Of a stretch of DNA of 64,000 nucleotides, positions 4,435-52,294 are shown piece by piece; position 1 is the first letter of the stretch, and every line of letters begins with the position of its first letter. The stretch covers positions 2,524,040-2,588,039 of the forward strand of contig OY760427.1 of the NCBI GenBank assembly GCA_963663495.1, written 5' to 3'. Position numbers and translations under genes: made by a program. The stretch comes from Rhodothermales bacterium (GTDB lineage Bacteria; Bacteroidota; Rhodothermia; Rhodothermales; Bin80). The notes under the pieces are model-generated. The model saw nothing but the letters and a program-made list of their open reading frames with translations. It did not search any database and was not told the DNA's origin.

Positions 4435-6041
4435 GAGCCTTTTGCAAAACCCCGGTGTATTCGGCGGCGGTGGCGACCCAAATGCCCAAATTTTCGGGTT
4501 TTTCGACATTACGCCGGGAGCATTGGCATGTGTTGCCTTTGGATCCAGATGTATAGGCGGTCCATAGGCGATGAAGGCTTCCCGGGGGGGCGAATTCGGG
4601 GCAGAATCCGTGCTTTGTGGGCACACCCATACTTGGCTCCTGCTTCGCACAAAACCCGATTAGCGCAATTTACGTCTGGATTCCTGTCTCTATTGCACCA
4701 TACGCAACAGCTGATCTACCGTCAGTACCAGCACGCCGAACATCAAGTGGCATGTCACCTTCTTGTGCCCACGCACGCGGACATTACGACCACCAAACTC
4801 ATCCTTGAGCCGCCCGAAGGCTCGCTCAACCGTTGAGCGCTCCCTGTAACGAACATCCTCAGGCGGTACCAATCCGGCTGCTCGCTGGGCCGTTTTCTCG
4901 CGGATAAGCGCCGCCTTACCTTTGCGTCGCGGATTATGGTCGATAATCGGCACATGCCCCAAGCCTTTACTGTGCTCGTGAATCTGCTTCGCGTCGTATG
5001 CACTGTCCATCAGATCATACAAATTGCGTACCCGCAGTTGAGATATCGTAGCCAACGGAATCGCCGCCTAGCTATCATGCAAAGATGCAGAGGAAACAAA
5101 ACCGCTGATCGGTACTCCTCCGTCGGCCACATCCATGTGCAACTTGTACACCGTCCATTTCTGCGTATATCCCTTCGCATTGCGCTTAACGCCTACCGTA
5201 TATCGCTTCGGTAACTCCTCCAACATCTCCTCTATCCCCATGGTACGCTGGCGCACCAGCCGCGGCAACTCCTTCGGAGGCTTTTCATCCTTGGTAGGAT
5301 GCGATGATTTGCACTCTTCTGGACGCTCCGACTCCTTTTTCAGTACCGGCTTCTCTCGCGCTGCTATTGCGGTCGAATCACGCGATAGGTGCCCCACCAA
5401 CTGCTCCGAATACCCCTCCTTTATCAGGGCCTCATGTACACGCGTCGGCAAATCCGCCTCTGAAAATTCCCTGAACACACGTGAAAAGGTCGCCTCACTC
5501 GGCACATCCTCTAACCGATGCCAACCACCCAAACGCCGCAGCGTCGGTTCCGAACGCAACCGCTCCACCAACGCTCTGGTCGTATCCATATTGAACACCA
5601 TCTTCGCTAGGAACGCCCGCGCGAGGGCAGCACGGCTCTTCAACGGACGCCCGGGTATACCGTCCTGAGCACTGGGCAGAAAGCGCTCAACTCGCACCAT
5701 CTCCAGTACCGAGAGCAGCTTCTTATGGCGCCCCTCCAAGGGGCCAATCGTTTCCTCCACCCAGGGGAAAAGCTCCCGTTGGCAGTTGATCCAGAAACCG
5801 CTTAACTTGGAATTGAAGGACATGAGAACCTTCGTTTCTTGCGAGTTTAGTTTCTCCTCCAAAGATACCTGACACGGAGGTTCCAGTCCCTCAAGTGTGC
5901 TTGTTAGCACACATTTTCATGGCCTGTAGAATCCTCCATCTGCACCCGCCGAGCAGTCAAATCTACCTGACCAGCCCCCTATCTTAGGAAATCGCATTTT
6001 CAGACAAAAACACCCCGATTCAAGGGTTTTGCAAAAGGCTC
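4435..6041 (-). mobile_element. IS5/IS1182-like (DUF772) insertion sequence
   Basis: Perfect 18-bp TIRs GAGCCTTTTGCAAAACCC (4435-4452) and GGGTTTTGCAAAAGGCTC (6024-6041), with GTAC on both flanks. Confidence 0.8.
4690..5823 (-). pseudogene. DUF772/DDE transposase with one in-frame stop
   Basis: ORFs 5068-5910 and 4690-5055 are in the same frame, separated by TAG in HDS*AAIPL. Motifs: VPSEATFSR, SRDSTAI, YKLHMD, MDSAYD, RSTVERAFGRLK. Confidence 0.8.
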
Positions 6042-6403: not shown

Positions 6404-6985
6404 CTACTCCTGCGACCCCGGCACCCAATGCTCTACAAGCACGGAACGGCCAATTATTTCAACGATGCGCATATAGCACTCAACGCCGTCCGAGTCGGTC
6501 AACCGGAGTGCTTCGCCGGGAACAAACGGAACCGGCTGCGGCCGACCCCGGCCAACGGAGATATTCCAAGCATACAGATAGGTGCGATCCAGCGTGTCGC
6601 GTATGGGGTTTAACCGCCCCTTCAAGCCGGGTAGACGGCCTGTCGCCTCGGCGAAGATGGCACTTCCGCCCTGCGGCAGCGGAGTCAGTTCAAGAGCGAG
6701 AGCACCGGTAGCGGGCAACCATTCACGCACTAGGCAGGCTGCATGGCCAGGTGCCGCGCCGAACACTATCATCGGCAGCTGGGTCGTATATAGTTCCACA
6801 GCGGCTTCGCCGTTCTCGTCCGCGACTGCCTGCTTCCAAGTTCGGTTCGGGAACAGCGCTAGGACACCCGCTCCTGGCAGGGGCTGATGGTCGGCTCTGA
6901 CAGTGACAACCACGCGGGAGGAAGTGGCGTCCTGCGGTGCGGCGGGGATCCGCAGCAGGATCTCCGCATCGTCAATCAATCTATA
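6404..6985 (-). pseudogene. C-terminal part of the AlbA_2/HATPase gene interrupted by the tnpB element
   Basis: YRL-IDDAEILLRIP continues in frame from RAPKYRL at 8440-8460 once the element and one TSD copy are removed. Confidence 0.8.
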
Positions 6986-6990
6986 GGGAA

Positions 6991-8238
6991 TTATATACGT
7001 GAGTGACCAACTGTACACAGTGAGGCACTAGTATCAATTTCACGGGTCATAGGGGTCGGTAACCCGAACGCCCCTCGCCGTGCAGAAGCCCCAATCCCGG
7101 AGGCCAGTATGTTTGCAGCCGCATTCAGGTCTGCATGATCCGCATGTCCACAGGACATACACGTGAATTTGCTCTGCGTCTTACGGTTACTCGCTTCTGT
7201 GTGCCCACACACAGAACACCGACTGGTATAGGCAGCGGTAACCTTTATCACCTTGCGGCACTTATAGCCCAGCATCTGATCCAACTGGCCCCAACCTGTT
7301 CGCAGTATTCCACGGTTGAGGCCAGACTTCTGTCTGACGTTTGTGCCAAAGCTCTCCATCGTCCCCTTAGCTGAACGTGTCATCGCTTTGATCTTTAGGT
7401 CCTCCAGTATCACCGTTGAGGAGCATTTGGCAATACTGCGACTTACCTGGTGGTTCGCATTCTTGAGGATGTTAGCACGCTTGCGCTGTATGCGGGCGAT
7501 TCTATGCTTCGGCCTGTTACGACGGTTGGAGCCTTTCTTCTGTCTCGCCAGTCTTCGCTGATGCCGCTTCAACTTGACATCAAGACGCTTCGTATCCGGT
7601 TGTCTGATAATGCTTGTATCGCCCTCTGTGGAGACCATAGCGATCTGCCCGCAATTACGGTCAATGCCTACAGCACTGCCGGTATCCTCTATTACAGGTG
7701 CCTCAATCTTGTAGCAGATGACAGCATACCCTTTGCCGGCGTTCTTCTTTACAGTGGCTTTGATGGGTATACCATCAGGGTACGGGTTGCCTCCCCGCCT
7801 GCGGAGCGCCATATATCCCACTTTCGGGATATACAGCTTGCCATCCCGAACCCTTACGTTATCCGGGATCGTGAACGAAGGCGTACTACCACGTCTGGAA
7901 TGGAATCTCGGTCTTCTCTTACCTTCCTTGAAGAATGCCTTCCATGCATCCGCCTGATATTTCAATGTGTATCTAACGACACCAAAGGAGTATTCAGGTA
8001 GCCACTCGACCGTGCGGCGCAGTGCCGTGAACCGCTTCCCCAGCGAGAAGAAGCTTACCGAGGGCGGCTTCTCTCCAGCCTCTTTCGCTTTCTTGTAGGC
8101 CTCGCTCTGCTCTGCGAGGATGGCATTCCACACAAACCTACACGCACCCGCTAATCCAGCAAGTTGCTTGGCGTTACTTCGACTTCCGGGCAACAGCCTG
8201 TATGTGATATTGCGGTATGCACTAACCGTTTCGGGCAT
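6991..8238 (-). CDS. tnpB: RNA-guided endonuclease TnpB, RuvC triad intact
   Basis: 415 aa. HTH (GACRFVWN), RuvC-I GIDRN, RuvC-II LEDL, Zn finger CSVC/CMSC, RuvC-III ADLNAA. Confidence 0.95.
   Translation of the reverse strand: MPETVSAYRNITYRLLPGSRSNAKQLAGLAGACRFVWNAILAEQSEAYKKAKEAGEKPPSVSFFSLGKRFTALRRTVEWLPEYSFGVVRYTLKYQADAWKAFFKEGKRRPRFHSRRGSTPSFTIPDNVRVRDGKLYIPKVGYMALRRRGGNPYPDGIPIKATVKKNAGKGYAVICYKIEAPVIEDTGSAVGIDRNCGQIAMVSTEGDTSIIRQPDTKRLDVKLKRHQRRLARQKKGSNRRNRPKHRIARIQRKRANILKNANHQVSRSIAKCSSTVILEDLKIKAMTRSAKGTMESFGTNVRQKSGLNRGILRTGWGQLDQMLGYKCRKVIKVTAAYTSRCSVCGHTEASNRKTQSKFTCMSCGHADHADLNAAANILASGIGASARRGAFGLPTPMTREIDTSASLCTVGHSRI
7031..7115 (-). ncRNA. Putative omegaRNA 3' scaffold core overlapping the tnpB 3' end
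   Basis: About 90% nucleotide identity with 52158-52243, although the two proteins are clearly diverged. It contains a 34-nt identical block, a GGGG-TCGG-GTTA-CCGA-CCCC nested stem and a CACGG/CCGTG pairing. The 5' boundary is unknown. Confidence 0.65.
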
Positions 8239-8439
8239 GGCACTGTGATATATAACTCCCTAATATATGAAAATTATATTCCATGCGTACCCACGTGTTG
8301 AGTTATTTGAAATAATTGCAGTTTTTCGTGAAAAGCGGGAACCGATTATGAACAACTGGCGAAAGCCATCCTGTCTGCACCACCAAAGCACAATAAGTAA
8401 CTCCTGCGAAAACGCGTGGCATTCAGCCATATAACTCCC

Positions 8440-9605
8440 AATCTATACTTCGGTGCCCGTCCTGATAGCTCGCGGGTCTTACGGATGATTGCAGGAACGC
8501 CATCTCCGCGGCGCTCCATGAAGTAGCGCCGGTCTGCAGAGCCGGGGGTGTCGTCCACTCCCATCCGCCCCATCACGGAGGCGATGGCCTCGTTTCGGGT
8601 CGCTTGCTTCAGCGCCATGCTCTCAATGGTCAGGCTATTGGGGAGCGTGCCGGGCGATTGGATTTCCAAGCGGTCGGAGAACATTGATAGGCGGATCCTG
8701 CTGCCGCGAATTGAATAATCTCGATGCGCCACGGCGTTCACGACCGCCTCAAAGATTGCCTTCTCACTGTACTGCGGCATGTTGATCCGTGCGGGCGTCT
8801 CGCGAGCGGCGACTCGCATGTTACGCCACGCAAACGACACCGCGGCCCTGATCTGTCGCTGGAGCGGACCGGTAATTTCCTGCGAGTCCACTTGTCCGGT
8901 CGTACGATCCGTTCCGCGATAGAGGGTTGCCGTAATGGCGGCATTGGGCAACCACTGCTCGGGGCATTGAGTGCACAATAGTACACCAGCCACGGTCGCG
9001 CATTGGACCCCGGAATCATTCGACGCGAGCAGCGCGAGCTTCGCTAGGCCGACCTCCGGCTCGGCGGCGCCCTCGGCGGTCAGCATCGGCACCCATAGCG
9101 CAGGGTCTAACGTGTCGAACCCTGTTCCCGCCACCGGCTGCTCGTCGAACCACAAGTGCCGACCCTGTGCGCGCCGCTGCCTCAACCGCATCGGTTCGTC
9201 GCCTATCAACCGGCGCTTGCTTGCTCCGACCCGGATCCAACTTCGACCGTCGTGCTCGTGCAGCGACTCGCCCCGTGGCACTTCGACCAAGACAAAGGCT
9301 TTGCCGTCCAGCTCCCGGTGATGCACATTGATGCGCAGGGCAGGCTTGATGGCGTCAGTACTCAACTCGGTCACTAGGTTGTTAAGCGTGGTCATCTGTT
9401 CGCGGGTCATACCTTGAAGGAGCCCCCCATCCGTTACGCCCATCAACAGCCGACCGCCGATCGCGTTGGCAAAAGCGATCATCTCGGCGGCGAGATGATC
9501 GCGACTGGGGCTTGCGAAACGTGTGCCAGAGAACTCTACCCGCTTGAACTCCCACCTACTGTCTTCGCCCAGTTGCAGCCGCTGCCGGATGTCCTCGTCA
9601 CGCAT
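8440..9605 (-). pseudogene. N-terminal part of an AlbA_2 (Schlafen-like) + HATPase_c_4 (RecG-C-like) protein, interrupted
   Basis: MRDEDIRQRLQLGEDSRWEFK, FANAIGGRLLMGVTD, EAVVNAVAHRDYSI, LEIQSPG. Rejoined with 6404-6977 it gives a 579-aa ORF. Confidence 0.85.
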
Positions 9606-9607
9606 CG

Positions 9608-9730
9608 TCAGAAGATCATCTCGGCGATGTACTTGGCCGCGTCTATTGAGTCGAGTAACGTATAGGACATAGCCCACAACTCGGCCTTATAGCTGGTCGT
9701 GGCGCCACTGTCATTCTGCTTGGAGGGCAT
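9608..9730 (-). pseudogene. hsdM: N-terminal remnant of type I R-M methyltransferase HsdM
   Basis: MPSKQNDSGATTSYKAELWAMSYTLLDSIDAAKY resembles the HsdM_N pattern YEAELW.MADALRGSMDAAEY. Confidence 0.55.
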
Positions 9731-10676: not shown

Positions 10677-12986
10677 TTATATGAACCCAGATGAATTCCC
10701 GTGCGAACATGCACTCAATTGTTCGTCTCTTACCTCGTATCCCAATGTCATTAGGTGTAACCTCTCTAGGCCACGCCACATGATCTGGTAACCCACCGGT
10801 CCATCACGAGTGCGGTTCTGATAACCGCCGAGCACCGCTACGATCAGGATAGCAGCTCCCAAAGTACTGGGCTTCGGCAGCTTTACCCGTGCTGCATATC
10901 CATCCAAGAATCGCAGCTCCATCTCCGTGAAAAAGACATCCGCGTCCAGCTCCGGCACCTCCCGACCCAATTGCACCAAGGTCATGACGCGCCAGGATAT
11001 CACACAATACATCGTTATTGCTCGCTGCAGACGCAACGAGGTACGCAGACCCAAACGCTCTACCTTGCACCCACTCTTGAGCACGCGGAAGAAGTCTTCC
11101 ACCCGCCACCGCTTGAGATACATGGCCAACACCCGCCGTGCATCCGCTACGCTCCCTACCTCCATGCTGGTCAATAGCATCCACTCCACCGGCAGCGCAT
11201 CCCCCGGAGGCTCCACCTCCAACACATGCACCCCGTACATCACCACCGGCTCCTCCTCGTTCTTCGGATCCGGCAACAAGAACCTCCCGTAGCGTACCTC
11301 CACATTGACCATCCGGTAACTGCGACCCTTCCGTGCCTGCTTGCGCGCCTGCTTCTTGCGCGCCGTCACCCGCTGTATCTCTATCTCCACATTCCCCGGA
11401 GCCTTACCACTGCGCATTACCGCAAACAGCTTGCGATCATCCAACAGCTTGCGATCATGCTTCGCTCGTATCAATACCTCCGCCTTACCCTGTCTGCGCT
11501 GCTCGGCAAACATAGCAAAGCTGTCCGCCTCCCGGTCCGCAACACAGATCACCTGCGTCTCGCCGGACAGCTCCTCCGCCGCCTCGCATATATCCTTGAA
11601 CCCGTCTATCCACTGCTGCGTCCGCGGAGCATGCGGACCCTCCTCCGGATCCTTGAAGCTGCCACGCAACACCCCCAACGTCAATCCATCCTCCGTCACC
11701 ACCAGCGTCGCATGCAACGGCAACCCCAGCGTCTTCGCCGTCGTCTGATTACTCCCTATTACCTCCAAATCCGTACACGCCGGCCGCGTACTGTACCGCA
11801 ACTTCGTCGTGTCCCGGATGCATAACACGGTCTCCTGACTACGCATGCGCTCTATCGTACGCCCACGATGCGGCGCCAATATGTTCTCCGGCGTTACCGT
11901 TTTGTCCTTCTTGCTCTCCAATAACCGGTAATGCCCCTTCACCGCCGCGCGGTCCGCATCCGTATGCGCGGTAATGCTGTGGCCTATCACATCGGCCAAC
12001 ATGGACGTACTCTTTACCAGTCGCACAGACAACCGCCTGTCTCCCAATGGCGCTCCGCCAAACTCCGTTTCGGCCCACTGCGCACTGTCAATCCCCTCGT
12101 GCGGATCCCTCACCGGACGCAACTCCTCCTCCGGTTCCCCCAAGGTCCCGCGCCATTCTTTGTCCAACTCGTATACATACAGCCCCTTGGGATCCTCTTC
12201 CTTTGCCTCCTTGTGCCGCTTTCCGCCTGCGGTATGGCCGATCAATACAAAATTGTTCACCTCAAAACACGCTCCTTCCCCTTGGGGATCCACATACGTT
12301 TCGACAACCCAGGGACGGTAACAGTACCGTGCCTGAAAATCATCCGCCAACCGTCTCAATACCTTACCCAGTACATGGCTGGCCAAATCCTGACACTGCC
12401 CCCGTATCAGAAAACGACTCAAACACACCACACGGTGCAAATGCGCCTTGCGCTGCTCATCACTCCACGCCATCCAGTGCTCTCTGGGCGCCAGGCACAA
12501 CGCCGCCGCCGAAAATCCCACCGCTCCCAGGTAACCATGGGCACTGCCTATCAGATAGCGTACCTGCGCTCCCACAAATGTGGTCGTACGCCTCGGATGC
12601 TCAAAGTGCAGCAACGTGTTCCACACCATACGCTGCTCGTCCGTCTCAACCAACTCAATCGTCAACCCCCGGACACCGTGTACCGTGCCCGGTAACGCTA
12701 TCGGATCCGGTACCCGCTCCTCGCGCCTACGCGGTTCCGCCTTAGCCGCATTACAATTCTCGGGCTTGGGCAACACAATCCTCCCCCGGGCCTCCAACTT
12801 CGATAAAGCCTGCGCACAGTTGCTCACCTGCGGTTCGCCCCGTGCATCAACAAACCCGAACTCTTCACAGACAGCGCGCGCTATCTGCGTGCGAAACCGC
12901 CAACGATCGTCGGCAAGAACCCTGTCCAAACGCTCTCCATTGCAGGGAGCGGTGAGCGTTCGTAAGACCTGACCTCGTTGAAACAT
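10677..12986 (-). CDS. IS4 (Tn5-like) transposase with N-terminal DUF4338 (DruA-like) domain, intact
   Basis: 769 aa. YLIGSAHGYLGAVGFSAAA (DUF4338), WAETEFGGAPLGDRRL (Tn5-N), DDE residues in IRDTT, ADREAD and RWRVEDFFRVLKSGC. Left end CTACCAC at 13036. Confidence 0.9.
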   Translation of the reverse strand: MFQRGQVLRTLTAPCNGERLDRVLADDRWRFRTQIARAVCEEFGFVDARGEPQVSNCAQALSKLEARGRIVLPKPENCNAAKAEPRRREERVPDPIALPGTVHGVRGLTIELVETDEQRMVWNTLLHFEHPRRTTTFVGAQVRYLIGSAHGYLGAVGFSAAALCLAPREHWMAWSDEQRKAHLHRVVCLSRFLIRGQCQDLASHVLGKVLRRLADDFQARYCYRPWVVETYVDPQGEGACFEVNNFVLIGHTAGGKRHKEAKEEDPKGLYVYELDKEWRGTLGEPEEELRPVRDPHEGIDSAQWAETEFGGAPLGDRRLSVRLVKSTSMLADVIGHSITAHTDADRAAVKGHYRLLESKKDKTVTPENILAPHRGRTIERMRSQETVLCIRDTTKLRYSTRPACTDLEVIGSNQTTAKTLGLPLHATLVVTEDGLTLGVLRGSFKDPEEGPHAPRTQQWIDGFKDICEAAEELSGETQVICVADREADSFAMFAEQRRQGKAEVLIRAKHDRKLLDDRKLFAVMRSGKAPGNVEIEIQRVTARKKQARKQARKGRSYRMVNVEVRYGRFLLPDPKNEEEPVVMYGVHVLEVEPPGDALPVEWMLLTSMEVGSVADARRVLAMYLKRWRVEDFFRVLKSGCKVERLGLRTSLRLQRAITMYCVISWRVMTLVQLGREVPELDADVFFTEMELRFLDGYAARVKLPKPSTLGAAILIVAVLGGYQNRTRDGPVGYQIMWRGLERLHLMTLGYEVRDEQLSACSHGNSSGFI

Positions 12987-30930: not shown

Positions 30931-32658
30931 ATGTGTTATTGTAGGCTGGCGGTAGTGATAGTGTTCGTGCTGGTGGCAAGTTGTGACAGTGTGTTCGAGC
31001 CAGACATTGGACCTGCACAGTCCGAACATGTCGGTAACGTCCGGCTGTGGTATCAGGAAGCCATGGGCACCTCAAGTCTTGGCAAGGCGGCAGTGGACAG
31101 CACGGAGCTGGCAATTCTTGCTGCACTTGTACGAGAATATCCGCCCGACTGGCAGCAGGCAGTGGCATGGGTGGACGCGGATGGTGGGGTCCATGTAAGC
31201 ACCGTACTTGGATCGGACAAACCGGCTGTAAGCTTTTCTGATTCGAGTGTGTCAGTTGTACGTACCTTTATTGCCGACTTGGATGAAGCAGGAGAGGTAG
31301 AGGGGGCGAGACTGCTTGAGTTTGCCAATGTCCAGAAGCTGGACCCTGCTGATTTTGTGCAGTACCTGGCCATGTGGCTGACAGGCGACTTTGGCGACCT
31401 TACGATGCTTGTTGCAGAGTACAGTATCGGATATGCTGCTAAGCAGGCGGTGTTCTTTAGGCCCGGCAGCAGTGCTGCTGAGCCTGTAGCACTGTCTTTG
31501 GAGCAGAGGAAATCGGCTGGCAAGGCTCCGCCGGATGGTGTGTGGATGTGTTATGTATCGGAATTCAAACGTGGTTGGGAAATCTGCATAGAAGATGTGG
31601 AACCAGGGTTGGGCAAGGTCGGGTGTATTGAAGGCCCTGCCGAGATTGAGTACACATGTATCTATTTCCCTGGTCATAGCGGTGGCGGAGGAGGATCGGG
31701 TGGCGGCCGTGGTGGAGGAGGTGGAGGAGGTGGAGGAGGCGGAGGAGGCAATGATGACGATGACAACGATGACGAGACCAAGCAGGTCGTTTTTGCGCTG
31801 GATTGCGATAAGACCGTAACTCGCGGTAACAACGGCAGCTGCACCGTTACCGCCACGAAAGAAGACGAGCTGGTTGACCTTAGTCAGTACACCTTTAAAT
31901 GGACATCCTCAACAGGTGCAAGCCGTTCCGGCAAAGGTCTTTACACTTGGGGTGGCATCGCGACCGACAAGACAACCGTAAAGGTAGATGTCAGCGGATT
32001 CAGCGATTCCAAGAAGATCAAAGTGACTGCAAGGTCGAACTGGCGTTCAAAAGCAGTACGGGCAGATTGGGTCTATTCAAACAGGTATCCATATGATGGA
32101 TTCTACGAACTGTTTAACAAAGCCTCGCAAGTTCCAGCGCCGGGGGCAGGAACTGGACCTTGGGCGGGGCGATTCTACATGAAGGACCCGCCTGAAGTGC
32201 ACACGACGATACATATACACCACAAATTCGCCCAGTCGGGCCCTGCCTATCCGGGTGCAAATGACACCTGCGCGCGATCATCCACATTACGGGAAAATGA
32301 AACCCACCGGACTGTCAATAATCGCTGTGGCACATCTAAAGAATTGGAATCATATTTCCACATGGTTTTGGCACACGAGCGGGATCACGAGGCCGGAATC
32401 AACGAGTGTCTTACGTCCAGCTCAAAGGCGAAGGACACGATGAAGAAATTAGAAAAGACCGTTGCCAACAGCAGCGCCGACCTGCAGGATAGTGCACAAG
32501 ATTTATGGGAAGAGTTCTATGATAATTCACTGACACAGTCTGGGCTCTCGGGAAAATCCTATGCAAGCCTTGACGAGCACTTCTGGCACTACGGCATTAT
32601 CGGATGGAAGCTCGGTTGGGTTGTAATAGCTACGGAGAAATTAGTTGATAATTGTTAA
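30931..32658 (+). CDS. Lipoprotein with Gly-rich linker, Ig-like middle region and C-terminal HExxH (zincin-like) domain
   Basis: Lipobox VASC, poly-Gly/Asp linker at 31678-31785, AHERDHE motif. Function is inferred only. Confidence 0.65.
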   Translation: MCYCRLAVVIVFVLVASCDSVFEPDIGPAQSEHVGNVRLWYQEAMGTSSLGKAAVDSTELAILAALVREYPPDWQQAVAWVDADGGVHVSTVLGSDKPAVSFSDSSVSVVRTFIADLDEAGEVEGARLLEFANVQKLDPADFVQYLAMWLTGDFGDLTMLVAEYSIGYAAKQAVFFRPGSSAAEPVALSLEQRKSAGKAPPDGVWMCYVSEFKRGWEICIEDVEPGLGKVGCIEGPAEIEYTCIYFPGHSGGGGGSGGGRGGGGGGGGGGGGGNDDDDNDDETKQVVFALDCDKTVTRGNNGSCTVTATKEDELVDLSQYTFKWTSSTGASRSGKGLYTWGGIATDKTTVKVDVSGFSDSKKIKVTARSNWRSKAVRADWVYSNRYPYDGFYELFNKASQVPAPGAGTGPWAGRFYMKDPPEVHTTIHIHHKFAQSGPAYPGANDTCARSSTLRENETHRTVNNRCGTSKELESYFHMVLAHERDHEAGINECLTSSSKAKDTMKKLEKTVANSSADLQDSAQDLWEEFYDNSLTQSGLSGKSYASLDEHFWHYGIIGWKLGWVVIATEKLVDNC

Positions 32659-32669
32659 ATGGTGACGCA

Positions 32670-33341
32670 ATGAAGATGAAAACGATGTTGTTATTGTTCA
32701 TCCTGATTCCGGTCGGACTCCGGGCGCAATCGAACGGTCTGATGTTTAAGGACGGCGAATGGCAAAAACCGACGCCTGCTGCGGCTCTACGCGCATTCGA
32801 GGCAGACCCAAACGGCGATTCTGACGATTCCGATAAGCCCATCCTTGCCGTATTGCGCCAACGATATCAAGCGTTCACGGATGAAGAGCTGAACGCACTA
32901 GCCGAGAACCTCGTAGTAATGATTCGCGAAGGAACGCCTGAGCAAGCGTATAATGCGTTTGTTGTGCTGCTCTTTTCTGGCCGGCGACAGTTCGCCCCCA
33001 GTGAAGATACCCCATACGCGGGAGCAAAAGATATATTTATTCGCCTGTACGAGTCAGGCCTGGACAGAAGATCAGAGGGTAAGGGATTTTCCATAACCTG
33101 GAAATCCGCACTGCGGGGTGTTTACTCTGCCGGTGGATACGATTACGTTCGGAACCTGTTCGGAGCGAGTGAACTGCCGCCCCCTTGCCAATATCAACTA
33201 AGACGCCCGGTTGAAAATCCGTGCCCGAATAAGGGCACTTGGTGCGATGCCGGATTGATATTGTTGTCAAAAGAAGACGAGCATGCACCAGACAGCGAGC
33301 TGTGGCGCAGGCGCTGCGGCCAACCTAGGATAGGTTTTTAG
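32670..33341 (+). CDS. Secreted Cys-containing partner protein, copy 1
   Basis: Signal peptide MKMKTMLLLFILIPVGLRA|Q. Starts 11 nt after the lipoprotein stop. Confidence 0.75.
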   Translation: MKMKTMLLLFILIPVGLRAQSNGLMFKDGEWQKPTPAAALRAFEADPNGDSDDSDKPILAVLRQRYQAFTDEELNALAENLVVMIREGTPEQAYNAFVVLLFSGRRQFAPSEDTPYAGAKDIFIRLYESGLDRRSEGKGFSITWKSALRGVYSAGGYDYVRNLFGASELPPPCQYQLRRPVENPCPNKGTWCDAGLILLSKEDEHAPDSELWRRRCGQPRIGF

Positions 33342-33570: not shown

Positions 33571-34809
33571 ATGGTGGTTCAACATCAGAATCTGAAGACA
33601 CTGCGTGCCGCTCCATGTGAGTTGACAGAGGTCATGGAGCAGCATCCTGACGATGGTCGCACAGCGATAAGTCGCCGTGTGAGTGAAACGTTTGGCTTTT
33701 ATGATGCCTTAGGGCGTGTGCAGCACAGCAGTTGTTTGCAGGCGCTCAAGACACTCGAAGCCGAGGGGGCGCTGTCCTTACCTACACCGAAGCGCGTGGT
33801 CCGAAGCACAGTGCCTCGTTTGTTGGACGAACCGGTACCTGCGCCTGTTGGAGTGCCGACATTGCTCAAGGATGTGCGCGGCCTGGAGTTGGAATTGGTA
33901 GAAGATGCCGGGCAGCGTGCGATCTGGAATACGCTTGTGGAGGCCGAGCATCCGTTGTGTGCGCCACGGTTTGCCGGACGGCAGTTGCGCTATCTTGTCG
34001 GGAGCGAGCATGGCTACATCGGAGCGATAGGCTTTGCGGCTGCGGCGCTGTATCTGAAGGCGCGCGACAGATGGATGGCGTGGTCGGACGAGCAGCGTGA
34101 GGACTACCGGGACCATGTCGTGGGTTTGAATCGGTTCCTGATTCGCTCCATGGTGCGGATCAGGAACCTTGCCAGCCATACATTGGGGAAGGTATTGCGT
34201 CGTTTTCCGGAGGATTTTGAGAACCGTTCAAACAGGTATCCATATGATGGATTCTACGAACTGTTTAACAAAGCCTCGCAAGTTCCAGCGCCGGGGGCAG
34301 GAACTGGACCTTGGGCGGGGCAATTCTACATGAAGGACCCGCCTGAAGTGCACACGACGATACATATACACCACAAATTCTCCCAGTCGGGCCCTGCCTA
34401 TCCGGGTGCAAATGACACCTGCGCGCGATCATCCACATTACGGGAAAATGAAACCCACCGGACTGTCAATAATCGCTGTGGCACATCTAAAGAATTGGAA
34501 TCATATTTCCACATGGTTTTGGCACACGAGCGGGATCACGAGGCCGGAATCAACGAGTGTCTTACGTCCAGCTCAAAGGCGAAGGACACGATGAAGAAAT
34601 TAGAAAAGACCGTTGCCAACAGCAGCGCCGACCTGCAGGATAGTGCACAAGATTTATGGGAAGAGTTCTATGATAATTCACTGACACAGTCTGGGCTCTC
34701 GGGAAAATCCTATGCAAGCCTTGACGAGCACTTCTGGCACTACGGCATTATCGGATGGGAGCTCGGTTGGGTTGGAATAGCTACGGAGAAATTAGTTGAT
34801 AATTGTTAA
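33571..34809 (+). CDS. Chimeric DUF4338(IS4)-HExxH ORF, copy 1
   Basis: The first ~220 aa match the IS4 at 41457-42575. From SNRYPYDG onward it matches the lipoprotein C-terminus. Confidence 0.75.
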   Translation: MVVQHQNLKTLRAAPCELTEVMEQHPDDGRTAISRRVSETFGFYDALGRVQHSSCLQALKTLEAEGALSLPTPKRVVRSTVPRLLDEPVPAPVGVPTLLKDVRGLELELVEDAGQRAIWNTLVEAEHPLCAPRFAGRQLRYLVGSEHGYIGAIGFAAAALYLKARDRWMAWSDEQREDYRDHVVGLNRFLIRSMVRIRNLASHTLGKVLRRFPEDFENRSNRYPYDGFYELFNKASQVPAPGAGTGPWAGQFYMKDPPEVHTTIHIHHKFSQSGPAYPGANDTCARSSTLRENETHRTVNNRCGTSKELESYFHMVLAHERDHEAGINECLTSSSKAKDTMKKLEKTVANSSADLQDSAQDLWEEFYDNSLTQSGLSGKSYASLDEHFWHYGIIGWELGWVGIATEKLVDNC

Positions 34810-34820
34810 ATGGTGACGCA

Positions 34821-35474
34821 ATGAAGATGAAAACGATGTTGTTATTGTTCATCCTGATTCCGGTCGGACTCCGGGCGCAATCGAACGGTCTGATGTTTAA
34901 GGACGGCGAATGGCAAAAACCGACGCCTGCTGCGGCTCTACGCGCATTCGAGGCAGACCCAAACGGCGATTCTGACGATTCCGATAAGCCCATCCTTGCC
35001 GTATTGCGCCAACGATATCAAGCGTTCACGGATGAAGAGCTGAACGCACTAGCCGAGAACCTCGTAGTAATGATTCGCGAAGGAACGCCTGAGCAAGCGC
35101 ATAATGCGTTTGATGTGCTGCTCTTTTCTGGCCGGCCACAGTTCGCCCCCAGTGAAGATACCCCATACGCGGGAGCAAAAGATATATTTATTCGCCTGTA
35201 CGAGTCAGGCCTGGACAGAAGATCAGACGGTCTAACCAGGAAAGTCGCACTGCTGGGTGTTTACTCTGCCGGTGGATACGATTACGTTCGGAACCTGTTC
35301 GGAGCGAGTGAACTGCCGCCCCCTTGCCAATATCAACTAAGGCGTTCGGTTGAAAATCCGTGCCCGAATAAGGGCACTTGGTGCGATGCCGGATTGATAT
35401 TGTTGTCAAATGAAGACGAGCATGCACCAGACAGCGAGCTGTGGCGCAGGCGCTGCGGCCAACCTAGGAGATAG
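34821..35474 (+). CDS. Secreted partner protein, copy 2
   Basis: Paralog of 32670-33341 with a variant central region and a 2-nt insertion at the extreme C-terminus. Confidence 0.75.
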   Translation: MKMKTMLLLFILIPVGLRAQSNGLMFKDGEWQKPTPAAALRAFEADPNGDSDDSDKPILAVLRQRYQAFTDEELNALAENLVVMIREGTPEQAHNAFDVLLFSGRPQFAPSEDTPYAGAKDIFIRLYESGLDRRSDGLTRKVALLGVYSAGGYDYVRNLFGASELPPPCQYQLRRSVENPCPNKGTWCDAGLILLSNEDEHAPDSELWRRRCGQPRR

Positions 35475-35711
35475 GTTTTTAGGTCCATGTAGGAGATGCT
35501 GGAATGCAAGCAGCTGCACTGGTGATGGCCGCATTTATGACTCTGGACGCAAACGGACGGCATATTGCTTACGGAGGGCGCAAAGTAGACGCCCACACCT
35601 ACTTTAATGCTCCGTGCAATCAAGGTAGAACCGAGGGAAGGCAGACCTAGGCCTACCGTTCAACCGGTACCCCTACTTAACTTTATAATTCATGCCGCTT
35701 AGATTGGCGGC

Positions 35712-36950
35712 ATGGTGGTTCAACATCAGATTCTGAAGACACTGCGTGCCGCTCCATGTGAGTTGACAGAGGTCATGGAGCAGCATCCTGACGATGGTCG
35801 CACAGCGATAAGTCGCAGTGTGAGTGAAGCGTTTGGCTTTTATGATGCCTTAGGGCGTGTGCAGCACAGCAGTTGTTTGCAGGCGCTCAAGACACTCGAA
35901 GCCGAGGGTGCGCTGTCCTTGCCTGCACCGAAGCGCGTGGTCCGAAGCGCTGTGCCTCGTTTGTTGGACGAACCGGTACCTGCGCCTGTTGGAGTGCCGA
36001 CGTTGCTCAAGGATGTGCGCGGCCTGGAGTTGGAATTGGTAGAAGATGCCGGGCAGCGTGCGATCTGGAATACGCTTGTGGAGGCCGAGCATCCGATGTG
36101 TGCGCCACGGTTTGCCGGGCGGCAGTTGCGCTATCTTGTCGGGAGCGAGCATGGCTACATCGGAGCGATAGGCTTTGCGGCTGCAGCGCTGTATCTGAAG
36201 GCGCGCGACAGATGGATGGCGTGGTCGGACGAGCAGCGTGAGGACTACCGGGACCATGTCGTGGGTTTGAATCGGTTCCTGATTCGCTCCATGGTGCGGA
36301 TCAGGAACCTTGCCAGCCATACACTGGGGAAGGTATTGCGTCGTTTTCCGGAGGATTTTGAGAACCGTTCAAACAGGTATCCATATGATGGATTCTACGA
36401 ACTGTTTAACAAAGCCTCGCAAGTTCCAGCGCCGGGGGCAGGAACTGGGCCTTGGGCGGGGCGATTCTACATGAAGGACCCGCCTGAAGTGCACACGACG
36501 ATACATATACACCACAAATTCTCCCAGTCGGGCCCTGCCTATCCGGGTGCAAATGACACCTGCGCGCGATCATCCACATTACGGGAAAATGAAACCCACC
36601 GGACTGTCAATAATCGCTGTGGCACATCTAAAGAATTGGAATCATATTTCCACATGGTTTTGGCACACGAGCGGGATCACGAGGCCGGAATCAACGAGTG
36701 TCTTACGTCCAGCTCAAAGGCGAAGGACACGATGAAGAAATTAGAAAAGACCGTTGCCAACAGCAGCGCCGACCTGCAGAATAGTGCACAAGATTTATGG
36801 GAAGAGTTCTATGATAATTCACTGACACAGTCTGGGCTCTCGGGAAAATCCTATGCAAGCCTTGACGAGCACTTCTGGCACTACGGCATTATCGGATGGG
36901 AGCTCGGTTGGGTTGGAATAGCTACGGAGAAATTAGTTGATAATTGTTAA
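35712..36950 (+). CDS. Chimeric DUF4338(IS4)-HExxH ORF, copy 2
   Basis: As copy 1. Confidence 0.75.
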   Translation: MVVQHQILKTLRAAPCELTEVMEQHPDDGRTAISRSVSEAFGFYDALGRVQHSSCLQALKTLEAEGALSLPAPKRVVRSAVPRLLDEPVPAPVGVPTLLKDVRGLELELVEDAGQRAIWNTLVEAEHPMCAPRFAGRQLRYLVGSEHGYIGAIGFAAAALYLKARDRWMAWSDEQREDYRDHVVGLNRFLIRSMVRIRNLASHTLGKVLRRFPEDFENRSNRYPYDGFYELFNKASQVPAPGAGTGPWAGRFYMKDPPEVHTTIHIHHKFSQSGPAYPGANDTCARSSTLRENETHRTVNNRCGTSKELESYFHMVLAHERDHEAGINECLTSSSKAKDTMKKLEKTVANSSADLQNSAQDLWEEFYDNSLTQSGLSGKSYASLDEHFWHYGIIGWELGWVGIATEKLVDNC

Positions 36951-36961
36951 ATGGTGACGCA

Positions 36962-37630
36962 ATGAAGATGAAAACGATGTTGTTATTGTTCATCCTGATT
37001 CCGGTCGGACTCCGGGCGCAATCGAACGGTCTGATGTTTAAGGACGGCGAATGGCAAAAACCGACGCCTGCTGCGGCTCTACGCGCATTCGAGGCAGACC
37101 CAAACGGCGCTGACGATTCCGATAAGCCCATCCTTGCCGTATTGCGCCAACGATATCAAGCGTTCACGGATGAAGAGCTGAACGCACTAGCCGAGAACCT
37201 CGTAGTAATGATTCGCGAAGGAACGCCTGAGCAAGCGGATAATGCGTTTGATGTGCTGCTCTTTTCTGGCCGGCGACAGTTCGCCCCCAGTGAAGATACC
37301 CCATACGCGGGAGCAAAAGATATATTTATTCGCCTGTACGAGTCAGGCCTGGACAGAAGATCAGAGGGTAAGGGATTTTCCATAACCTGGAAATCCGCAC
37401 TGCAGGGTGTTTACTCTGCCGGTGGATACGATTACGTTCGGAACCTGTTCGGAGCGAGTGAACTGCCGCCCCCTTGCCAATATCAACTAAGGCGTCCGGT
37501 TGAAAATCCGTGCCCGAATAAGGGCACTTGGTGCGATGCCGGATTGATATTGTTGTCAAATGAAGACGAGCATGCACCAGACAGCGAGCTGTGGCGCAGG
37601 CGCTGCGGCCAACCTAGGATAGGTTTTTAG
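36962..37630 (+). CDS. Secreted partner protein, copy 3
   Basis: Paralog with a 3-nt in-frame deletion. Confidence 0.75.
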   Translation: MKMKTMLLLFILIPVGLRAQSNGLMFKDGEWQKPTPAAALRAFEADPNGADDSDKPILAVLRQRYQAFTDEELNALAENLVVMIREGTPEQADNAFDVLLFSGRRQFAPSEDTPYAGAKDIFIRLYESGLDRRSEGKGFSITWKSALQGVYSAGGYDYVRNLFGASELPPPCQYQLRRPVENPCPNKGTWCDAGLILLSNEDEHAPDSELWRRRCGQPRIGF

Positions 37631-37859
37631 GTCCATGTAGGAGATGCTGGAATGCAAGCAGCTGCACTGGTGATGGCCGCATTTATGACTCTGGACGCAA
37701 ACGGACGGCATATTGCTTACGGAGGGCGCAAAGTAAACGCCCACACCTACTTTAATGCTTCGTGCAATCAAGGTAGAACCGAGGGAAGGCAGACCTAGGC
37801 CTACCGTTCAACCGGTACCCCTACTTAACTTTATAATTCATGCCGCTTAGATTGGCGGC

Positions 37860-39098
37860 ATGGTGGTTCAACATCAGATTCTGAAGACACTGCGTGCCGC
37901 TCCATGTGAGTTGACAGAGGTCATGGAACAGCATCCGGACGATGGTCGCACAGCGATAAGTCGCCGTGTGAGTGAAGCGTTTGGCTTTTATGATGCCTTA
38001 GGGCGTGTGCAGCACAGCAGTTGTTTGCAGGCGCTCAAGACACTCGAAGCCGAGGGGGCGCTGTCCTTACCTACACCGAAGCGCGTGGTCCGAAGCACAG
38101 TGCCTCGTTTGTTGGACGAACCGGTACCTGCGCCTGTTGGAGTGCCGACATTGCTCAAGGATGTGCGCGGCCTGGAGTTGGAATTGGTAGAAGATGCCGG
38201 GCAGCGTGCGATCTGGAATACGCTTGTGGAGGCCGAGCATCCGTTGTGTGCGCCACGGTTTGCCGGACGGCAGTTGCGCTATCTTGTCGGGAGCGAGCAT
38301 GGCTACATCGGAGCGATAGGCTTTGCGGCTGCGGCGCTGTATCTGAAGGCGCGCGACAGATGGATGGCGTGGTCGGACGAGCAGCGTGAGGACTACCGGG
38401 ACCATGTCGTGGGTTTGAATCGGTTCCTGATTCGCTCCATGGTGCGGATCAGGAACCTTGCCAGCCATACATTGGGGAAGGTATTGCGTCGTTTTCTGGA
38501 GGATTTTGAGAACCGTTCAAACAGGTATCCATATGATGGATACTGCGAACTGTTTAACAAAGCCTCACAAGTTCCAGCGCCGGGGGCAGGAACTGGGCCT
38601 TGGGCGGGGCGATTCTACATGAAGGACCCGCCTGAAGTGCACACGACGATACATATACACCACAAATTCGCCCAGTCGGGCCCTGCCTATCCGGGTGCAA
38701 ATGACACCTGCGCGCGATCATCCACATTACGGGAAAATGAAACCCACCGGACTGTCAATAATCGCTGTGGCACATCTAAAGAATTGGATTCATATTTCCT
38801 CATGGTTTTGGCACACGAGCGGGATCACGAGGCCGGAATCAACGAGTGTCTTACGTCCAGCTCAAGGGCAAAGGACACGATGAAGAAATTAGAAAAGACC
38901 GTTGCCAACAGCAGCACCGACCTGCAGGATAGTGCACAAGATTTATGGGAAAAGTTCTATGATAATTCACTGACACAGTCTGGGCTCTCGGGAAAATCCT
39001 ATGCAAGCCTTGACGAGCACTTCTGGTACTACGGCATTATCGGATGGGAGCTCGGTTGGGTTGGAATAGCTACGGAGAAATTAGTTGATAATTGTTAA
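37860..39098 (+). CDS. Chimeric DUF4338(IS4)-HExxH ORF, copy 3
   Basis: As copy 1. Confidence 0.75.
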   Translation: MVVQHQILKTLRAAPCELTEVMEQHPDDGRTAISRRVSEAFGFYDALGRVQHSSCLQALKTLEAEGALSLPTPKRVVRSTVPRLLDEPVPAPVGVPTLLKDVRGLELELVEDAGQRAIWNTLVEAEHPLCAPRFAGRQLRYLVGSEHGYIGAIGFAAAALYLKARDRWMAWSDEQREDYRDHVVGLNRFLIRSMVRIRNLASHTLGKVLRRFLEDFENRSNRYPYDGYCELFNKASQVPAPGAGTGPWAGRFYMKDPPEVHTTIHIHHKFAQSGPAYPGANDTCARSSTLRENETHRTVNNRCGTSKELDSYFLMVLAHERDHEAGINECLTSSSRAKDTMKKLEKTVANSSTDLQDSAQDLWEKFYDNSLTQSGLSGKSYASLDEHFWYYGIIGWELGWVGIATEKLVDNC

Positions 39099-39109
39099 AT
39101 GGTGACGCA

Positions 39110-39763
39110 ATGAAGATGAAAACGATGTTGTTATTGTTCATCCTGATTCCGGTCGGACTCCGGGCGCAATCGAACGGTCTGATGTTTAAGGACGGCGAAT
39201 GGCAAAAACCGACGCCTGCTGCGGCTCTACGCGCATTCGAGGCAGACCCAAACGGCGATTCTGACGATTCCGATAAGCCCATCCTTGCCGTATTGCGCCA
39301 ACGATATCAAGCGTTCACGGATGAAGAGCTGAACGCACTAGCCGAGAACCTCGTAGTAATGATTCGCGAAGGAACGCCTGAGCAAGCGCATAATGCGTTT
39401 GATGTGCTGCTCTTTTCTGTCCGGCGACAGTTCGCTGAAGATACCCCATACGCGGGAGCAAAAGATATATTTATTCGCCTGTACGAGTCAGGCCTGGACA
39501 GAAGATCAGACGGTCTAACCTGGAAAGCCGCACTGCAGGGTGTTTACTCTGCCGGTGGATACGATTACGTTCGGAACCTGTTCGGAGCGAGTGAACTGCC
39601 GCCCCCTTGCCAATATCAACTAAGACGCCCGGTTGAAAATCCGTGCCCGAATAAGGGCACTTGGTGCGATGCCGGATTGATATTGTTGTCAAATGAAGAC
39701 GAGCATGCACCAGACAGCGAGCTGTGGCGCAGGCGCTGCGGCCAACCTAGGATAGGTTTTTAG
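39110..39763 (+). CDS. Secreted partner protein, copy 4
   Basis: Paralog that is 6 nt and 12 nt shorter at two in-frame positions than copy 1. Confidence 0.75.
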   Translation: MKMKTMLLLFILIPVGLRAQSNGLMFKDGEWQKPTPAAALRAFEADPNGDSDDSDKPILAVLRQRYQAFTDEELNALAENLVVMIREGTPEQAHNAFDVLLFSVRRQFAEDTPYAGAKDIFIRLYESGLDRRSDGLTWKAALQGVYSAGGYDYVRNLFGASELPPPCQYQLRRPVENPCPNKGTWCDAGLILLSNEDEHAPDSELWRRRCGQPRIGF

Positions 39764-39933: not shown

Positions 39934-42634
39934 CTACCGTGCGCCCAGTTCAGATACCAGACACTGTATAATATTTGTCTGTTTTTGCAAGTTTGGTGTA
40001 GTGATTGGTTCTTTCAAGAGGTGCGGAGCCCTCGGACCGGAGTGATGCTTGCACCGGGGATGCGGGAAACGTAGCATCATTTGGCATGCGCGAGGCGCTT
40101 GCCTATGCGATGGACATACGTCGGCGCTATAACGCCCGGTAGCTCTGGCGTCTTTACAGTTCTCTTCCAAATCCCCGTTGCCATCGCACTAAACGTTGGC
40201 GCGGCAACGACGCTGGGGGGCAGGTATCACTCCCGGCTTTGGGTACGTTTATTGCTTCGCGTGCTCGTCATTCTCGCTTAACGATGAGAACTTCTCTCCG
40301 TATCATATGGTATCGCTTCTCAAGGACGGCAAAGGTCTTGGCCCCTATCTCCAACCGGCTGTAGCCGCGCCAGATGACCTTGGAGCCTGGAGGCCGGTCC
40401 TTCTTCCGATCCATATAGCCACCAAAGACGGCCACCACCCGAATAGCAGCCCCGAGTGTCTTTGGAGGCGGCAGTCCAAACTCGTCGGCAAGCTCGTGCA
40501 ACAGGCGCAGTTCCATCTCATCAAACAATCCTTCCGGCGACGCTTCGGGTTCCTCGCGCCCCAGAAGCGTCATCAATAGCAGGCGCCACGCCATCACCAT
40601 ACAGATCGTAATGGCATTGTGCAGACTCTTGGCCTGCCGCATACCCAGCCGCTCTACCGCACAGCCGCTCTTGAGCACACGGAACATGTCTTCCACACGC
40701 CACCGCAACACGTAGTAGCCTACCACCTCAATAGCTTGCTCCAGCGTCGTAACCTCTTGGGTCGTCAATAGATACCACTGTACCGGTCGCTCTCCGGCTG
40801 GCGGCTGCACCTCCCGAACATGAATCGCACTGACCTGCACCGGATCCTCCTGCGACTTACCCGGCGCCGGAAGCGATAGGCGGCGGAAACGTACCTGCAT
40901 CCGCGCCAGACGGCCCGACCGCCCCTTATGCTTGACTCGACCTGACTTCACGCGGCGGCTCAAACGAGCAATCGGCACTTCCATGTGTCCTGCCGGACGG
41001 CCCGACCGCATGGTCGCAAACAACTTGGGAGACTTTTTACCCAATAGCCGATTCACCTTGGCTCGCACCAATATGTCCACACGCCCTGCGCTGCGCTGCT
41101 GCGCCAGGATCGCAAACACATCCGCCTCGCGGTCCATGACACACAGCACACGGGTACGACCACTCAGATGCGAGGCGGCTTCCGCTATGTCCCGCACGCC
41201 GTCTATCCATAACTGTGTCTTAGGAGCAGGAGCCTCTTGGTCGGTTGTATAGGCACAGCGTAAGATCCCCAACGGCACACCGTCCTCACCCACCGCCAGC
41301 GTAGCGTGCAAATGCACTCCTTTTGCCTTTGATGTGGTCTGATTGTGCCCTATCACATCCAACCCCTCGCACGCCGGACGAGTACTGTAGCTGATGTCCG
41401 TGCCATCCTGGATGCACAGCACCGTCCGTTGCGTACGCATCCGCTCTATCGTGCGATCACGATGCGGCTGCAAAATCTTCTCCGGCGTGATCTCGTTCTC
41501 GGCCGCTTTCTCCAAAAAACGGTAGTATCCCCGCCCGATCAGCGTCCAGATTGGCCGTGATCAATTCTCCTGGAGTGCGTGAAAGCATGGCCACGCTGTG
41601 TACCAACTGGTCCGAACGGCGTTTGTCCCCCAACGGCGCTCCACCAAACTCCTGTTCTGCCCATGTATCACTGGCCAGCCCCGCACCCACCTCCAGCTCG
41701 GGATACGCCTCCACAACCGGCACTCCAAGCTCCTGCCTCCAATCACCACCCAGATCATACACGAAAACCGCCTTCTTCTCTTTGGTGCATGCATTACCAG
41801 GAGCATGACGCCCACGCCCCTTGGTTTTTCCCACACACTGAAACCCCGCAGCCCGAAAACACGTGCCGCGATGTTCGGGGCTCACAAAGGTCTCTATCAC
41901 CCACGGCACATACCCGTAATCGTTCTCAAAATCCTCCGGTAAACGACGCAATACCTTCCCCAGTGTATGGCTGGCAAGGTTCCTGATCCGCACCATGGAG
42001 CGAATCAGGAACCGATTCAAACCCACGACATGGTCCCGGTAGTCCTCACGCTGCTCGTCCGACCACGCCATCCATCTGTCGCGCGCCTTCAGATACAGCG
42101 CCGCAGCCGCAAAGCCTATCGCTCCGATGTAGCCATGCTCGCTCCCGACAAGATAGCGCAACTGCCGTCCGACAAACCGTGGCGCACACATCGGATGCTC
42201 GGCCTCCACAAGCGTATTCCAGATCGCACGCTGCCCGGCATCTTCTACCAATTCCAACTCCAGGCCGCGCACATCCTTGAGCAATGTCGGCACTCCAACA
42301 GGCGCAGGTACCGGTTCGTCCAACAAACGAGGCACTGTGCTTCGGACCACGCGCTTCGGTGCAGGCAAGGACAGCGCACCCTCGGCTTCGAGTGTCTTGA
42401 GCGCCTGCAAACAACTGCTGTGCTGCACACGCCCTAAGGCATCATAAAAGCCAAACGCTTCACTCACACGGCGACTTATCGCTGTACGACCATCGTCAGG
42501 ATGCTGCTCCATGACCTCTGTCAACTCACATGGAGCGGCACGCAGTGTCCTCAGAATCTGATGTTGAACCACCATGCCGCCAATCTAAGCGGCATGAATT
42601 GCAAAGTCAAGTAGGGGTACCGGTTTAACGGTAG
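39934..42634 (-). mobile_element. Full-length DUF4338-IS4 element
   Basis: Imperfect 18-bp TIRs starting CTACCGT. 8-bp TSD ACCTAGGC at 39926-39933 and 42635-42642. Confidence 0.9.
40268..42575 (-). pseudogene. DUF4338-IS4 transposase, frameshifted
   Basis: Split into 41457-42575 and 40268-41515 at DADRA/GYYRFL. DDE residues in IQDGT, MDREAD and RWRVEDMFRVLKSGC. Confidence 0.85.
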
Positions 42635-52270: not shown

Positions 52271-52294
52271 ATTGATAACCTAACCGGTACACTC

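Follow-up and report, generated by a model that had tools for sequence, protein, structure and literature searches.

A TnpB gene and its candidate guide RNA as the probable cargo of a non-autonomous IS1595-type transposon lineage in Rhodothermales and other bacteria

Within a 64,000-nucleotide stretch of a Rhodothermales bacterium (assembly GCA_963663495.1, contig OY760427.1, positions 2,524,040 to 2,588,039; here called the window), an intact gene for the RNA-guided nuclease TnpB is the only gene of a 1454-bp element at 6986-8439. The element is bounded by inverted repeats and flanked on both sides by a perfect 8-bp duplication, AATCTATA. It is very probably a non-autonomous member of an IS1595-family (DDE) lineage whose cargo is tnpB together with a 3′ RNA scaffold, and which is mobilised by an IS1595-type transposase encoded elsewhere. 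TnpB is usually tied to IS200/IS605 and IS607 elements, whose scarless excision suits a homing role. A first-pass annotation of the window, made from the letters alone, had pointed out that these usual carriers lack inverted repeats and target duplications, in agreement with published descriptions of both families (PMC13565253; PMC4810608). The features of the element and its surroundings, with coordinates in the window, are as follows.

6404-6985, minus strand: distal part of the host gene, joined in frame to 8448-9677 after excision of the element and one duplication
6978-6985, no strand: target-site duplication AATCTATA on the 3′ side of tnpB, identical to 8440-8447
6986-7005, minus strand: right-end terminal inverted repeat (downstream of tnpB), GGGAATTATATACGTGAGTG reading inward
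6986-7105, minus strand: conserved structured RNA region, candidate ωRNA scaffold, running to the element end and covering the last ~40 tnpB codons
6991-8238, minus strand: tnpB, intact open reading frame (ORF) of 415 amino acids, assigned by Pfam
8241-8260, minus strand: left end repeated in direct orientation, GGGAGTTATATATCACAGTG, 22 bp before the tnpB ATG
8273-8301, minus strand: sigma-70-like promoter match TCAACA-17-TATAAT facing tnpB, a consensus match only
8420-8439, minus strand: left-end terminal inverted repeat (upstream of tnpB), with reverse complement GGGAGTTATATGGCTGAATG
8440-8447, no strand: target-site duplication AATCTATA on the 5′ side of tnpB, identical to 6978-6985
8448, minus strand: base bordering the left duplication on the outside, G on the tnpB strand; candidate final position of a target-adjacent motif (TAM); G in 40/41 elements
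8448-9677, minus strand: proximal part of the host gene, with SLFN_AlbA_2 and HATPase_c_4 domains (Pfam on the ORF 8346-9677)
50944-52278, plus strand: second, decayed copy including its duplications (element 50952-52270), between argC-like and argD-like ORFs

The two 20-bp ends of the element are identical at 15 of 20 positions, which bears out the imperfect repeats and perfect 8-bp duplication of the first-pass annotation, and tnpB is indeed the only long ORF between them. Excision of 6986-8447 in silico yields a 606-codon open frame spanning the junction; counted from the ATG of MRDEDIR, the restored host ORF has 579 amino acids, the length originally given. The right end matches the left end of a tnpB element from another genome (locus L013; L numbers denote loci) at 20/20 positions, and a degenerate 20-mer end consensus, allowing up to 3 mismatches, finds 5 matches in the window against 0.04 expected. 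The extra left-end copy lies 179 bp inward of the outer left end, with the promoter-like match between the two; it is unique to this copy among 41 elements, being absent from the 40 others, and two short elements (L002 and the second copy in the window) terminate near its position.

The second copy is flanked by a perfect duplication of its own, ATTGATAA, at 50944-50951 and 52271-52278, with a G directly outside it at 50943. Its tnpB has a stop codon at 51252-51254 and LPDL in place of the catalytic LEDL of relatives (P0010 compared). The two copies are ~70% identical over tnpB and near-identical over the final ~130 nucleotides.

The same boundaries recur in relatives. A collection of other metagenome-assembled genomes (MAGs), in which the source genome is not included, contains 80 loci with TnpB proteins 42-80% identical to that of the window, in MAGs labelled Rhodothermales, Rhodothermaceae, Paracoccaceae, Rhodobacteraceae, Arenicellales and Gammaproteobacteria. 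One MAG name, SB0678, we take to denote a marine-sponge sample, and the sponge link made below is our own reading. Using a blind search for 8-bp direct repeats together with a motif search, we bounded ~40 relative elements (TnpB 44-78% identical; 1273-1465 bp), all with GGGRNTTATAT ends on both sides and each with its own AT-rich 8-bp duplication, perfect or 7/8 (consensus AAANNWWN). The ends and duplications at two hold-out loci added afterwards, L204 and L205, conform to this pattern. The check proposed in the first-pass annotation, on other copies of this TnpB clade, thus returned inverted repeats and 8-bp duplications in ~40 independent insertions from several bacterial orders. Furthermore, a second TnpB clade, only 30-33% identical, lies within ends of this type in L232 and L243/L164. 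No tnpB module outside the repeats was found among the 80 genome loci, and viral contigs gave no relatives of the window TnpB.

At 90% identity, the window TnpB falls into a cluster of 212 different protein sequences; of the 15 members that were listed, 14 are on a single 5,919,514-bp contig, which also carries three further TnpB clusters. The source genome holds >200 TnpB variants, a number that two copies per 64 kb fits (~200 genome-wide).

Two local features of these relatives may be recorded here. In Rhodothermales elements (L007, L009, L012-L014 and L056), the first ~150 nucleotides are conserved and, ahead of the tnpB ATG, contain a palindrome, CAATAGGATGG...CCATCCACCCTATTG; the window copy has a left region that is not homologous to this one. 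Within one lineage of Paracoccaceae, the same ~87-bp module, ending in GGGGGTTACACCCGCTGGAC, abuts the tnpB element end, at the left in L019, L020, L023, L025 and L034 and at the right in L059 and L077. It occurs on either side in inverted orientation, with the first base of the inverted repeat altered, and may be another small mobile element targeting the terminus.

What connects the element to IS1595 is its ends. Five autonomous elements (L201, L087, L119, L120 and L096) encode IS1595 transposases between ends that are 18-19/20 like those of the window element: L201, which runs off its contig, matches the right end at 19/20, and the complete L087 (1816 bp) matches at 18/20. Their 8-bp duplications are perfect in L087, L119 and L120 and 7/8 in L096, and the transposases of L087, L120 and L201 carry the Pfam domains Zn_ribbon_IS1595 (PF12760) and DDE_Tnp_IS1595 (PF12762). 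Autonomous elements with the same ends, which the first-pass annotation had proposed to look for, therefore exist. At least 120 metagenome stretches and 60 stretches of viral contigs contain the exact 19-mer from the end of the window element, GGGAATTATATACRTGWGT; an IS1595 transposase lies just inside the end in ~45 of the 120 metagenome stretches listed, and a TnpB in only 1 of the 120. Miniature inverted-repeat transposable elements (MITEs) with the same ends and 8-bp duplications are also present (L112, L135, L138, L140, L177 and L199). In L087, L096, L119 and L120 the distance from the left end to the transposase start is 350-770 bp, with total lengths of 1.5-1.8 kb; insertion sequences of the ISNwi1 type are presumably shorter, at ~1.1-1.2 kb. 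The ISNwi1 group has, in ISfinder, ends of the form ggnnatTAT and direct repeats of 8 bp, as the first-pass annotation also noted; GGGAATTAT fits this form, and the element is a candidate member of the subgroup.

IS1595 elements also occur in MAGs that carry tnpB elements (L035, L073 and L082). At L035, a 1332-bp insertion sequence (4691-6022) with perfect 22-bp ends, GGGAATTATATACGAGAATCCC, and the duplication CTTCCAAT contains a degraded gene with Zn_ribbon_IS1595 and DDE_Tnp_IS1595 domains (PF12760 and PF12762), and the ends of the window element are 17/20 identical to it. The same MAG has, at L082, an IS1595 transposon of 3.7 kb whose passengers are a methyltransferase and an endonuclease and whose duplication is 7/8. 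At L073 (6894-9621), an intact 338-amino-acid IS1595 transposase and a methyltransferase passenger lie between GGGAATTATATCGAAYAGTAAC ends, 243 bp from a tnpB element. No single element with both transposase and tnpB was present among the loci examined, and tblastn gave no transposase match inside the large inverted-repeat pairs at L051, L066, L069, L072 and L073. Since the only ORF of the window element is tnpB, with no DDE_Tnp_IS1595 transposase, it is not an autonomous IS1595 member; since its ends and 8-bp duplications match the IS1595 family, a transposase encoded elsewhere probably moves it.

An insertion sequence of another family was considered as the mobiliser and rejected. An ISL3-family insertion sequence (L001, 5296-6701) lies 50 bp downstream of a tnpB element in a Rhodothermales MAG and likewise has 8-bp duplications, but its ends differ (GGCTTCCGC.../GGCTCTTCAC...) and it is a separate insertion.

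The cargo itself appears functional at the level of the family. The window TnpB carries the Pfam domains HTH_OrfB_IS605 (PF12323), OrfB_IS605 (PF01385) and Cas12f1-like_TNB (PF07282), and aligns over its full length with ISDra2 TnpB (8H1J/8EXA), including the helix-turn-helix (HTH)/WED-REC, RuvC and zinc finger architecture. The 415-amino-acid ORF retains the RuvC D-E-D residues and the CxxC..CxxC pairs (GIDRN, LEDL, DLNAAANI, CSVCGH and CMSCGH). The ratio of nonsynonymous to synonymous divergence (dN/dS) between pairs of tnpB elements is 0.11-0.15 (~0.13); for example, dN is 0.13 and dS 1.03 for the window copy versus L002, and 0.03 and 0.21 for L080 versus L037. The kept D-E-D residues, this ratio and a covarying RNA structure at the 3′ end together suggest a nuclease maintained with its RNA.

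The final ~120 nucleotides of the elements are much more conserved than the remainder. RNAalifold on 28 elements predicts nested helices with compensatory changes at 17 of 29 pairs, including 18 and 10 double changes at two pairs of one hairpin. Because folding of the single sequence is not significant (z = -0.33), the support for this structure comes from covariation; a search of Rfam with the candidate RNA returned no match. The structure extends into the right inverted repeat, and the tnpB stop codon is 5-29 bp from the right end in most elements, so the right repeat would serve the transposase and the RNA alike. The right inverted repeat, here and at every right end of the family, also contains an outward-facing TATAAT (a TGTACA-16-TATAAT match, at 6990-7017 on the minus strand in the window), which may initiate or strengthen transcription into the flank, the expected location of the guide.

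The flanks hold a further signal. With the bounded elements oriented so that tnpB is on the plus strand, the base just outside the duplication on the tnpB-upstream side (position -9) is G in 40 of 41, whereas the mirror position after the right duplication is C in only 14/41 (Fisher 4e-10). The G is also found in nearly all further left flanks, including those of the hold-outs and of the distant clade in L232. As a control, autonomous IS1595 elements with the same ends were de-duplicated and split by transposase orientation; G occurs in 14/32 of their left and 11/34 of their right flanks, which is not significant (p = 0.45), and the left flanks of the tnpB elements differ from the autonomous left flanks (40/41 versus 14/32; Fisher 1e-7). 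A first small control had suggested that the asymmetry was a trait of the whole family, but it was gone in the larger, de-duplicated set. A 9-bp duplication as the source of the G was also rejected: at the right end, the position in question is occupied by the terminal C of the element itself. The flanking G is thus a candidate TAM and an indirect hint of TAM-dependent, RNA-guided cleavage by TnpB.

Several observations weigh against an element moved by an IS1595 transposase and maintained by an active, TAM-dependent TnpB. IS1595 transposases were found neither in the 64-kb window nor, among the 240 matches listed (120 of ~8000, twice), on the 5,919,514-bp contig. In MAGs with both kinds of element, the ends fully agree over the first 11-14 bases only, the closest end matches (18-19/20) are on contigs of unrelated soil, peat and viral origin, and the transposase element at L073 has no duplication. 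As to the nuclease, the window copy lacks one codon, for the Q of a conserved TSQ motif, relative to the cluster representative P0001, and many individual tnpB relatives are pseudogenes. Finally, for a TnpB, a TAM of a single base would be exceptionally short. The proposal in the first-pass annotation that tnpB was captured by an IS1595-type element and is moved in trans is nevertheless well supported, those of its proposed checks that were run having all come out in its favour, except that no transposase was recovered from the source genome among the matches listed.

From the evidence taken together, we infer mobilisation in trans, the position of the guide, the TAM and homing. The GGGRNTTATAT... 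ends would serve as recognition sites for an IS1595-type transposase encoded elsewhere, which would cut the element out, and insertion at AT-rich sites would proceed via an 8-bp staggered cut, which would give rise to the duplication. Selection keeps TnpB and its RNA. Transcription most likely continues past the right inverted repeat and into the flank, so that the guide would consist of the 8-bp duplication and downstream host sequence. In the step we favour, the RNA-protein complex would then cut the empty site, where G, duplication and flank are contiguous and G would be the last base of the TAM, and recombination would restore the element; the occupied site would be protected, since the element ends in C. 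TnpB homing would in this way be adapted to a cut-and-paste DDE transposon, with a guide that starts with the duplication, a TAM that ends in the outside G, and loss of insertions that lack the G. We put this homing step forward tentatively, as a plausible account that falls short of an even chance.

The strongest competing account is that TnpB is mere cargo of a trans-moved IS1595-type element and that the G reflects a sharper, orientation-specific target preference of the cognate transposase rather than a TAM. Autonomous relatives already favour G or C at this position (24/32 left and 23/34 right flanks), and their duplication is A-rich on the sense strand; our sample does not extend to the cognate transposase in the sponge-associated lineage, and IS1595 relatives bear unrelated passengers (methyltransferases, an endonuclease). 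However, the two flanks of the autonomous elements show no significant difference in G content, the right mirror position of the tnpB elements stays at that baseline, and a symmetric DDE complex is not expected to read a single flank. Furthermore, purifying selection on TnpB and covariation of the RNA persist across elements whose TnpB proteins are 44-78% identical, which argues that both contribute to fitness. We therefore regard mere cargo as unlikely, though it deserves serious weight.

A tnpB-RNA unit of IS605 or IS607 type that is nested in an IS1595-derived MITE and still moves by itself, the outer repeats being only those of the MITE, is very improbable. MITEs with these ends do exist, and the left end is duplicated in the first window copy. 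However, that inner copy is a direct and not an inverted repeat and is confined to the lineage of the window copy. The closeness of the tnpB stop to the outer right end in most elements and the run of the RNA structure into the inverted repeat leave no room for a separate inner right end, and the 80 loci show no module outside the repeats. Finally, an ordinary IS200/IS605 (IS1341-type) or IS607 element moved by a Y1 or serine TnpA, with coincidental repeats, has next to nothing in its favour beyond a typical TnpB with IS605 OrfB domains that aligns to ISDra2 TnpB and the frequency of tnpB-only elements in that family: a different 8-mer is duplicated exactly at the ends in each of ~40 independent insertions, the ends are inverted repeats common to DDE transposase elements, and none of the copies was seen to have a Y1 or serine recombinase gene as its neighbour. 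Indeed, both families lack repeats and duplications (PMC13565253; PMC4810608), so their presence in every bounded copy places the window element outside IS200/IS605 and IS607, and inverted repeats with a variable 8-bp duplication throughout the clade rule out Y1 or serine-recombinase transposition.

Other transposase and DruA-like ORFs lie in the window. In a 769-amino-acid ORF at 10677-12986 (minus strand), a DruA-like domain (PF14236) is joined to a transposase of Tn5 type (Tnp_DNA_bind, DDE_Tnp_1 and Dimer_Tnp_Tn5), and a second copy of this arrangement at 40268-42575 (minus strand) is apparently split into a 372-amino-acid DruA-like ORF and a 415-amino-acid transposase. At 33571-39763 (plus strand), a gene pair is present in three tandem repeats, each a 412-amino-acid DruA-like ORF followed by an ORF of 223-228 amino acids with no Pfam match, and just upstream (30931-33341) is a pair of ORFs of 575 and 229 amino acids. 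Near the tnpB insertion, an IS5/IS1182-like transposase at 4690-5910 (minus strand) is split into DUF772 (280 amino acids) and DDE_Tnp_1 (121 amino acids) ORFs, and is probably a frameshifted or decayed insertion sequence.

The association of TnpB with DDE transposons has precedents. Altae-Tran et al. (2023) described six DDE-associated TnpB branches (DDE-1 to DDE-6) with inverted terminal repeats, as well as solo TnpB genes mobilised in trans between ends like those of transposase-bearing elements (PMC10691335). The window lineage resembles the former in that TnpB lies within an inverted-repeat transposon, with the 3′ end of tnpB no more than 250 bp from the transposon end, and the latter in that its copies are flanked by ends resembling those of transposase-bearing elements. 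It differs in transposase family, theirs being IS630 (in the paper) and ISL2 and IS1031 (in a review) and that of the window lineage IS1595. Indeed, IS1595 is absent from the main text of Altae-Tran et al. (PMC10691335) and from the DDE families of TnpB named in the 2026 review, ISL2, IS630 and IS1031 (PMC13565253), and our literature search, which covered Altae-Tran et al. through its main text, found no report linking TnpB to IS1595. The novelty of the architecture is thus weakened, the general idea having been published (PMC10691335), and what remains is the IS1595 link, which was not found in the literature searched. The published branches were found through a co-encoded transposase, whereas no element of the window lineage has both genes; gene-neighbourhood surveys would therefore miss the link, which is visible from the element ends only. 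TnpB clusters above ~30 copies were not reported (PMC10691335), a statement that the >200 variants of the source genome contradict.

Compared with IS1595 insertion sequences of the ISNwi1-like kind, the window element shares ends beginning with GGGAATTAT, AT-rich 8-bp duplications, the presence of passengers in relatives and abundant non-autonomous derivatives. It differs in lacking a transposase gene, in carrying an RNA-guided nuclease and its RNA as the passenger, and in a right inverted repeat that doubles as the 3′ end of the RNA scaffold. Like IS1341-type elements, it consists of TnpB alone with an RNA that overlaps the gene at its 3′ end, and it needs a transposase in trans; those elements, however, have subterminal hairpins, insert 3′ of a fixed 4-5-nucleotide site and use a Y1 transposase (PMC13565253; PMC4810608). 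The closest eukaryotic parallel is with Fanzor1/Fanzor2* transposons (PMC10711439), in which a TnpB-family nuclease is likewise the sole gene of a non-autonomous cut-and-paste element and transcription of the guide RNA must extend across the inverted repeat and duplication. The window element is, in contrast, prokaryotic, with a canonical RuvC arrangement and another transposase family. For Fanzor elements, Yoon et al. (2023, PMC10711439) suggested that the RNA scaffold includes the duplication, a role hard to apply here because the 8-mer varies.

The window lineage would thus have a constrained TnpB and its RNA purely as passengers of an IS1595-type DDE element, with hundreds of copies in one genome and relatives across Rhodothermales, Paracoccaceae, Arenicellales and other gammaproteobacterial MAGs. 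New here are the >200 protein variants in one 5.9-Mb genome, the probable IS1595 link, purely in trans, and the one-sided G as a candidate TAM. The G bears on how TnpB is retained with cut-and-paste transposons and on how a guide deals with the duplication, questions that are relevant to Fanzor as well. If the homing account is true, retention by TnpB, and not only the preference of the transposase, would shape where the elements persist, and such retention would help them to reach >200 copies per genome and to spread across phyla of sponge-associated bacteria.

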